Positions 48,772 to 51,980 of a stretch of DNA of 64,000 bases are shown here, piece by piece. Positions within the stretch are counted from its first letter, which is position 1. Every line of letters begins with the position of its first letter. This DNA comes from Podarcis pityusensis (taxonomy: Eukaryota). Where the stretch lies: assembly GCA_964106645.2 (NCBI GenBank), contig OZ067043.1, one strand, 5' to 3'. The position numbers and the translations under genes were made by a program. The notes below the pieces were generated by a model. The model saw only the letters and a list, made by a program, of their open reading frames with translations. It did no database searches and had not been told where the DNA came from.

Positions 48772-48868
48772 GGTCCGGGTTTGTCATGTGCAGCGGCAAG
48801 GAGAATCCAGACAGTGATGCTGACCTTGATGTGGATGGAGATGACACACTGGAATATGGAAAGCCACA
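48772..48868 (+). CDS. RNF220: RNF220 coding exon (GSGFVMCSGKENPDSDADLDVDGDDTLEYGKP), 97 nt, phase 1/2
   Basis: Acceptor ttttccttcag. Donor CA|gtatcattt is U12-like. The peptide matches RNF220. Confidence 0.96.
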
Positions 48869-49265
48869 GTATCATTTTCTAGAGGTGCTGAACTCCCACC
48901 AAGAGACTGTGGCTCTGCTGTGCCAATAAAACTCTTGCTGCTCTTGCCTAATTCATACGTTTTCATTCAGTTAGGAGAGGATTCCACAAGTTCCCTGTTC
49001 ACTGAAATTGCTCTGTTAGCAACTTTATTTACTAGTCATGAGCTGGGTAGTAATTTCACCAGTTCCAGCATCTGATTCGTCGCTGAGGAGCGATGATTTC
49101 CTCCTCTGCTGTTTTAAGATGAGCATGTTCTTATTATCAGACAGCTGTTACTGTGTTTACACGTTCCTTGTGGTGAAAGGAACCTTGTGGTCTTTGAAAT
49201 GCATTCTTTAGTACTTCAGAATTTCTGGTGCCATTCTAATTGGTGCACTATATTGAATTTGTATG

Positions 49266-49296
<31 letters not shown>

Positions 49297-49543
49297 GAAA
49301 CTAGCCTAGTGTGGAAAGGTACATTCACATTCATTGATCTGCCCATTTTGCATCTGCCCCTGCTCACCACTGCTGTGTGGGCCCCAGAAAAAGTTACCCA
49401 GAAGGAAATGTGCCCCTTGGACTACAAACAGTTCCTACCCATCCCTCAAAGGAATTCTTGGCTGCTCTGCCTTGATGGCTTGGGATAAGCAGTGAAAGCT
49501 TCTTATTCATCAGGCTGTGCTCTCCTTAACCCTCCATGCTTAG
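48869..49543 (+). other. RNF220: Probable U12-type (minor spliceosome) GT-AG intron, 675 nt
   Basis: 5' site GTATCATTT against U12 consensus GTATCCTTT. Branch sequence TCCTTAAC at 49523-49530 ends 13 nt upstream of the 3' splice junction (49543/49544). The boundaries are forced by the reading frame (CA|A TAC = Q-Y). Confidence 0.85.
49266..49293. repeat. (TG)n microsatellite inside the U12-type intron
   Basis: Read directly from the sequence. Confidence 0.95.
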
Positions 49544-49630
49544 ATACACAGAGGCAGATATCATTCCATGCACTGGGGAAGAACCAGGTGAAGCCAAGGA
49601 GAGAGAGGCGCTTCGAGGTGCAGTCTTAAA
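49544..49630 (+). CDS. RNF220: RNF220 coding exon (YTEADIIPCTGEEPGEAKEREALRGAVL), 87 nt, phase 2/2
   Basis: TAG acceptor after the U12-type branch point, donor AAA|gtaagt. The peptide matches RNF220. Confidence 0.96.
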
Positions 49631-50183: not shown

Positions 50184-50430
50184 ATCATAGAATTGTAGAG
50201 TTTGAAGGGACTACAAGGACCATCTAGTCCAAACCCCTGCAATGCAGAAATGTCAAACCCATATACTGAGTCAATCATTGGTCCATCTAGCTCGGTATTA
50301 TTCACATCAGCCTTTGCAGATGTTTTCTACAACTTCCATCAGGTGCAGTCAACGCATCCATGCTGACTGAAACTGATGGGAGTTGTAGTCCAAAACAAAC
50401 TGGGGGGACCAGGTTGGTGAAGGTCAGTCT
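50184..50430. mobile_element. Cluster: CR1 3' end (minus), Squam2-like tail fragment and hAT-like MITE
   Basis: atcatagaattgtagagtttgaaggg is the reverse complement of the 59750-59790 tail; tactgagtcaatcattggtccatctagctc; gatgggagttgtagtcc. Confidence 0.55.
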
Positions 50431-51159: not shown

Positions 51160-51250
51160 GTAATAATAATTTATTATTTATACCCCACCCATCTGGCTGG
51201 GTTTTCCCCGCCACTCTGGACGGCTTCCATCAAAATATTAAAAATACAGT
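51160..51250 (-). mobile_element. L2 3' terminal fragment
   Basis: ttattatttataccccacccatctggctggg...ccactctggacggctt, same family as 6200. Confidence 0.6.
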
Positions 51251-51980
51251 AAAGTAACAGTAATTTAAAATTACGAAAACAGTGAGAGTATCTCTAGGTA
51301 TGCTTAAATTTAGCCATTTAAAGTCTGCTTGAATGCTTCTGAAAAAAATGCTATTTCAAGTATCAGTGAGTCTTGTTGGGAAAGAATTTCCACAGTTTGT
51401 AGGGAGTTATGGAAATCATTTCTGCATGCTATTCAAAGCTTAGCATGTGGCTGACACAAGTAAAGGGAGGTCTTGGTGCACTCTTGGTAAATCTTAAGAA
51501 AGTGACAGAACAGAAGATGAAAGGTGGGCTCTAAGTTCTGTAAATGCTTAAATCACTCAAGAACTAGGATCTTGAATTGCATGCAGAAGATGACAAGGAG
51601 TCAGTAAAGATGTAGCATTGGTGTAATCCACTCTTAACCCACCATTGCAGTAGCTGCATTCTGCACTGACTAGAACATGTCTTATCTCCCTTCCAGTGGA
51701 TACATAGTTATGGCTAGGCCTGGAAGGCCTCTGTTCAAGTTCATCTTCTGCTAGGGATTCATTGCATGGGCGGACAGATTTTTTTCTCAGTTTCCCATAT
51801 GTAAAATGAAAATAATAGTGTCCTGCTTTAACACAGTTGTGAGAGTAAACACAAATTGATTGTAAGGCAATTGACAAACTTTAAATACTATGTACATAAT
51901 CATTCCTAATAATGGTGAGAAGAAATGCATGCTGTGGGATTTTTCCTGGGACAAATTTTCACTGCTGTCTCTTTTTCCAG

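Follow-up and report, generated by a model that had tools for sequence, protein, structure and literature searches.

The 675-nt intron at 48869–49543 of the window (the whole 64,000-nt stretch of Podarcis pityusensis DNA analysed here) is, judged from its sequence, the squamate ortholog of an RNF220 minor intron that is already on record for human, mouse and zebrafish, and it carries A at donor position +6, where about 95% of mammalian minor donors have C. We consider it probable that this is an old, tolerated off-consensus minor intron in which a T run and a perfect branch point likely make up for the donor mismatch, and we predict that its removal in squamates is likely still the work of the minor spliceosome. 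The intron itself is already known, while a working A or G at +6 in its ortholog seems to be unreported: we found no description of the reptile RNF220 donor in the literature, and the databases MIDB, IAOD and U12DB may list a bird or lizard donor. The features considered below are as follows.

48772..48868, + strand: RNF220 coding exon, 97 nt, with two bases of a Gln codon at its 3' end (Pfam PF15926, tblastn, RNA reads and joints)
48869..49543, + strand: U12-type GT-AG intron, 675 nt (joint 48868>49544 in 7+13+21 raw reads; contigs of runs X15, X16 and X17)
48869..48878, + strand: off-consensus minor donor GTATCATTTT, with A at +6 (48874) and Ts from +7 to +10 (sequence; rarity in the human/mouse table)
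48925..48930, + strand: AATAAA over the read-through stop TAA (48927–48929), not conserved (organisms H and I have C for A at 48926)
49523..49530, + strand: perfect U12 branch motif TCCTTAAC (sequence; ortholog L011 has it equally far from the acceptor)
49536..49537, + strand: minor alternative acceptor ending AT, use of which adds 49538–49543 in frame (Q-L-R-Y; 3 reads)
49542..49543, + strand: main acceptor AG (sequence; RNA reads)
49544..49630, + strand: next coding exon of RNF220, 87 nt, with an ordinary U2 donor after it (Pfam PF15926, tblastn, joint 49630>51981)

The window holds middle exons of squamate RNF220 on the + strand, and Pfam PF15926 matched both exons flanking the intron. When snake proteins were used as tblastn queries, eight RNF220 exons fell inside the window and three RING-bearing exons beyond its end, at ~74.5, 77.1 and 88.1–88.2 kb from its start; together with the Pfam match, this bore out the preliminary description of the intron as lying upstream of the RNF220 RING exons. 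The RNF220 exon next to the minor intron is present as a single copy in the genome, and the preceding exon stops two bases into a Gln codon, so that the intron is in phase 2. A (GT)n run lies within the minor intron at 49257–49303, and the next RNF220 intron contains very high-copy repeats at ~50184–50410 and 51161–51270 (depth in the thousands to millions).

The exon–intron border reads CA/GTATCATTTT at 48869. Against the U2 donor consensus this donor matches at four of nine positions, in keeping with its earlier description as a poor U2 donor, while three correctly placed neighbouring donors match at 7–8 of nine; against the minor-donor consensus RTATCCTT it matches at seven of eight. The latter consensus was taken as printed in PMC10853781. 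Downstream, 15 and 14 nt separate the two As of the branch motif from the acceptor, which is slightly long as compared with the quoted optimum of 11–13 nt (PMC3584512), with ~11 nt, mostly pyrimidines, between the motif and the AG. TCCTTAAC pairs with the host U12 at a computed −6.7 kcal/mol, and the U12 core at U12-typical spacing that had been recognized from the letters is thus present. The intron is not a chance arrangement, since in RNA from a close relative 41 raw reads and the contigs of three runs connect its exact ends, and since the + strand of the 64 kb contains TCCTT[AG]AC just four times. Taken together, the donor, the TCCTTRAY branch motif, the short branch-to-acceptor distance, orthology and the host minor snRNAs are those of a U12-type GT-AG intron.

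The A at +6 was confirmed in the sequence and at the peptide level. Both P0001, a read-through peptide from the database whose last residue is not that of the window, and the Naja naja gene model P0002 read Y-H-F as well, which rules out an assembly error at this position. Reading into the intron, 19 intron-coded residues precede the in-frame stop TAA at 48927–48929, in agreement with the earlier estimate of ~20 codons, while the AATAAA overlapping it, previously placed at 48926–48931, is in fact at 48925–48930. Two cryptic U2 donors within the intron, at 49266 and 49319 (each matching at seven of nine positions), gave no joint in four RNA runs.

The counterpart of this intron is well documented in mammals. 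According to the supplement of PMC6717393, human and mouse RNF220 have the donor ACA/GTATCCTTG and the branch sequence TTGTCCTTGACC in introns of 200 and 177 nt; the human intron appears at chr1:44644795–44644994 in the supplements of PMC6717393, PMC6800510 and PMC11347168. The last of these supplements classes it as minor and responsive to U12, U4atac and U6atac morpholinos, lists the mouse intron as responding too, and lists that of zebrafish rnf220a as responding to rnpc3 loss. Retention of the human intron is given as 0.2% and 1.2% in controls and as 1.0% and 16% in U4atac patients (PMC6800510 supplement). These records, together with the sequence, uphold the earlier assignment of the squamate intron to the minor class. 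The human intron is also placed in category 2 (exon skipping), at 2–20% across tissues (PMC6717393 supplement), a skipping that touches the counterpart of the window exon 48772–48868.

The base at +6 is a rare one. Counting strings over the whole human/mouse minor-intron table, a few of which came from branch columns, we obtained 1,311 RTATCC, 56 RTATCT, 5 RTATCA and 1 RTATCG, i.e. a base other than C in 62 of the 1,373 RTATC-N strings and A in five (0.4%), two of these five being pseudogenes. In bare-duplex estimates, the computed pairing with U11 was 0.0 kcal/mol with A at +6 as compared with −5.7 kcal/mol with C, and that with U6atac −3.5 as compared with −6.7 kcal/mol. The A is thus predicted to weaken pairing with both snRNAs, as had been claimed, and because pairing with A was clearly weaker in the computation, the T run does not fully restore it.

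Host genes for U11, U12 and U6atac were found with standard pairing segments, the 5' end of U11 being AAAAAGGG and U6atac containing GAAAGGAGAG. U6atac is represented by two near-identical full genes (L007 and L008; G000 C5 and C17) and seven weaker copies, U12 by one gene, and U11 by one strong and one decayed copy. Three control minor donors, located where exons of ALG6, ALG8 and TAPT1 end, all have C at +6, whereas the VPS52 loci examined yielded no minor donor. Given the standard U11 and U6atac and the C in three of three control donors, a genome-wide shift of minor signals was ruled out.

Splicing was followed in RNA from a close relative (organism I), not from P. pityusensis itself; its intron differs at ~20 of 620 aligned bases, and 6–12% of each of three runs was read. 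We infer that organism I also has A at +6, because the X16 contig across the donor has 20 differences, which are filled by the at least 20 listed further into the intron plus that at 48926. The exact joint 48868>49544 was present in 7, 13 and 21 raw reads of the three runs (41 in total), and reads entering the intron numbered ~0, 0 and 2 against 44 spliced ones (about 2/46, 95% interval 0.5–15%), two of the runs having none against 23 spliced reads. The flanking U2 introns likewise gave 1–2 reads (X22, X23). Depth ratios of the retained contigs, a poor measure of retention, were 7.0%, 5.0% and 4.5%, which exceeds the 0.2% and 1.2% listed for human controls, obtained by different methods and in different tissues. 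In X16, the minor intron was covered end to end and the neighbouring U2 intron only patchily, a pattern that fits the ~2-fold excess of retention over neighbouring introns reported as the norm for minor introns (PMC4066798). Steady-state RNA under-counts retained transcripts if these are decayed, and mild leakiness of the minor intron in organism I could be present. The preliminary description had suggested that the intron may throttle RNF220 through retention; a strong throttle finds no support in the relative's RNA, in which some retention was seen at the contig level (~5% of depth), but splicing was accurate and retention low, with ~2 intron-entering reads against 44 spliced. Since a close relative splices accurately and with little retention, the +6 variant is likely tolerated rather than acting as a throttle.

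A second product was detected in the same RNA. The GT..AT joint 48868>49538, 6 nt upstream of the main acceptor and also readable one base further on, was represented by three reads with three different starts in X22 and by none in X23 and X24, i.e. by 3 of 44 junction reads, and adds two codons. Two gecko RefSeq isoforms (P0091 and P0106) share the Q-L-R-Y peptide. Since GT-AT is described as a productive U12 end pair (Sheth et al. 2006, in PMC1557818), the GT..AT product indirectly supports removal of the squamate RNF220 intron by the minor spliceosome. The 3' end would then be picked by its distance from the branch point, a choice under which a few percent of the transcripts may use the AT located 6 nt upstream and encode two more residues.

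To place the +6 base in a wider set of lineages, we read it from database ORFs that enter the intron, using the residue after Gln-Tyr. The 187 proteins comprised 108 with YTE (spliced or intronless), 36 with YRF, 27 with YP-, six with YHF, two with LRY, one with HPF and seven without a match; these residue counts are not frequencies, as they come from the best 120 of 1,226 matches ranked by likeness to the query and cluster members are redundant. Pro, corresponding to C at +6 (n=27), was found in named whale and lynx models and in fish-type sequences; Arg, corresponding to G, in 36; and His, corresponding to A, in six, including the Naja naja model. One family of Arg-type sequences also includes a His member (P0123). 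At the DNA level, G at +6 was confirmed in the ortholog L011, which reads CA/GTATCGTTTT, has TCCTTAAC at the same distance from the AG, and has an intron of 1,013 nt. Its exons are identical to those of the window at 85 of 97 and 73 of 87 nt, and over the final 32 bases of the intron 25 agree by eye. In their residues, the exons correspond to named birds and marsupials and to no named squamate; these residues, with an intron end like that of the window, make L011 likely a bird or other reptile. The comparison of +6 across lineages that had been proposed earlier gave A in cobra, G in a distant ortholog and C in human and mouse. The ancestral base would have been C, to judge from mammals and fish-type sequences; in the simplest history, an older lineage would have replaced this C by G, and the CpG so formed would have decayed to CpA in squamates.

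Several database entries showed further departures. The gene models of cobra (P0002), blue whale (P0053) and lynx (P0079) read through the donor and have false residues inserted, those of whale and lynx translating the branch-point region too. The read-through Q-H-P-F of P0139, a vertebrate sequence, implies at the peptide level C at +2, that is, a GC-type minor donor. P0148 and P0150–P0153 are fish-type ORFs, four of which begin in intron-like sequence and run on through Q-Y-T-E, so that the minor intron appears to have been lost in some fish RNF220 copies; for Tetraodon, the supplement of PMC2831892 lists intron 9 of C1orf164 (RNF220) as lost.

How the mismatch is accommodated can be proposed in outline: the Ts from +7 to +10, along with the perfect branch point, likely compensate for it, and U11 and U6atac may pair across the one mismatched base. 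The weak donor might instead have been selected as a mild, tunable brake that leaves a few percent of RNF220 transcripts unspliced and destroyed, and that acts more strongly under a shortage of U6atac or in certain tissues. A base other than C at +6 is common to squamates and a distant lineage, computed pairing is weaker with A, retention of ~5% stands against 0.2–1.2% in human controls, and the stop upstream of six further exons would make retained RNA a decay target that is under-counted, all of which could be expected of a brake. However, the absence of intron-entering reads in two runs, the fact that the two intron reads of X23 are equalled by the 1–2 reads that X22 and X23 show in the flanking U2 introns, and the ~2-fold excess that is normal for minor introns according to PMC4066798 speak against it, as does the tolerance of both A and G at +6, which is expected under relaxed constraint. 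We therefore regard a selected brake as unlikely. Likewise unlikely is a broader proposal, namely that a purine at +6 predates the divergence of reptiles and birds and has been retained in both as a weak site under selection, which would make RNF220 output unusually sensitive to U6atac and U11 and would come with a conserved GT..AT isoform two residues longer, while eutherian mammals and fish keep the standard donor.

That the intron is converting to the U2 type, as the preliminary description also suggested, or is already partly spliced by the major spliceosome, is very unlikely, even though it has GT-AG ends, a +6 base off the U12 consensus and a pyrimidine-rich stretch from the branch point to the AG. 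Converting introns are characterized in PMC11347168 by AG at −2/−1, a weakened branch CC and G at +1 of the next exon, and conversion is likewise tied to AG at −2/−1 and a weakened branch motif in PMC10853781. None of the former hallmarks is seen here: CA is at −2/−1, the branch CC is intact and the next exon starts with A. In L011, the next exon has G at +1 and the branch CC is intact; the branch point is unchanged and the base other than C at +6 is shared with this distant lineage. The match to the U2 donor, 4/9 as compared with 7–8/9 at the three neighbouring donors, and the use of GT..AT ends, better suited to U12 chemistry, also argue against conversion. Moreover, CA is fixed at −2/−1 by the invariant Gln codon, given the phase-2 position of the intron (an argument in line with the account in PMC7367187), so that the usual route to a U2 donor is likely blocked.

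Polyadenylation at the intronic AATAAA, put forward earlier as a source of RING-less RNF220, is the least probable of these readings: although the hexamer overlaps a stop 57 nt into the intron, and X2, a further, independent sample carrying the organism label of the best match, is unchanged at 48926, it is ACTAAA in two close relatives (organisms H and I), the L011 intron is without any A[AT]TAAA, retained contigs of organism I extend past the site into the next exon, and AATAAA is frequent by chance alone (present in 38% of random 675-nt and 6.6% of 100-nt window stretches). No pile of transcript ends was seen near the hexamer in four runs, all of them from the relative that has no AATAAA.

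An old, tolerated off-consensus minor intron thus remains our preferred reading. The natural series of C, G and A at +6 in one orthologous intron offers a test of compensation by the branch point or the T run, bears on minor-intron classifiers and on the interpretation of +6 variants in patients, and explains the mis-spliced public gene models of cobra, whale and lynx; the RNF220 donor finding does not demonstrate new regulation.

Compared with known systems, the squamate intron shares with the human, mouse and zebrafish RNF220 minor introns the gene, a GT donor and a U12 branch motif near the acceptor, and with those of human and mouse the exon end ACA/GTATC. In contrast, human and mouse have C at +6 followed by TTG and the branch motif TCCTTGAC, while the squamate intron, at 675 nt, has A followed by the T run at +7 to +10 and TCCTTAAC. 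With the minor-like introns described in PMC11347168 (Olthof et al. 2024) it shares a weaker match to the minor donor and GT-AG ends, but it differs from that description in having no AG at −2/−1, an intact branch CC and A at +1 of the next exon. The GT..AT form has the same ends as the non-canonical GT-AT U12 introns reported in PMC1557818, although here it is a minority form lying a short 8–9 nt from the branch As. A parallel for the donor is offered by catalogued mammalian minor introns that likewise have a purine at +6, for example that of PLCD4 (mouse GTATCAACC, human GTATCGGCA), A or G differing between the species; unlike these, the RNF220 intron combines this purine with consensus bases at +7 to +10, a perfect branch point and tested minor orthologs in mammals and fish.
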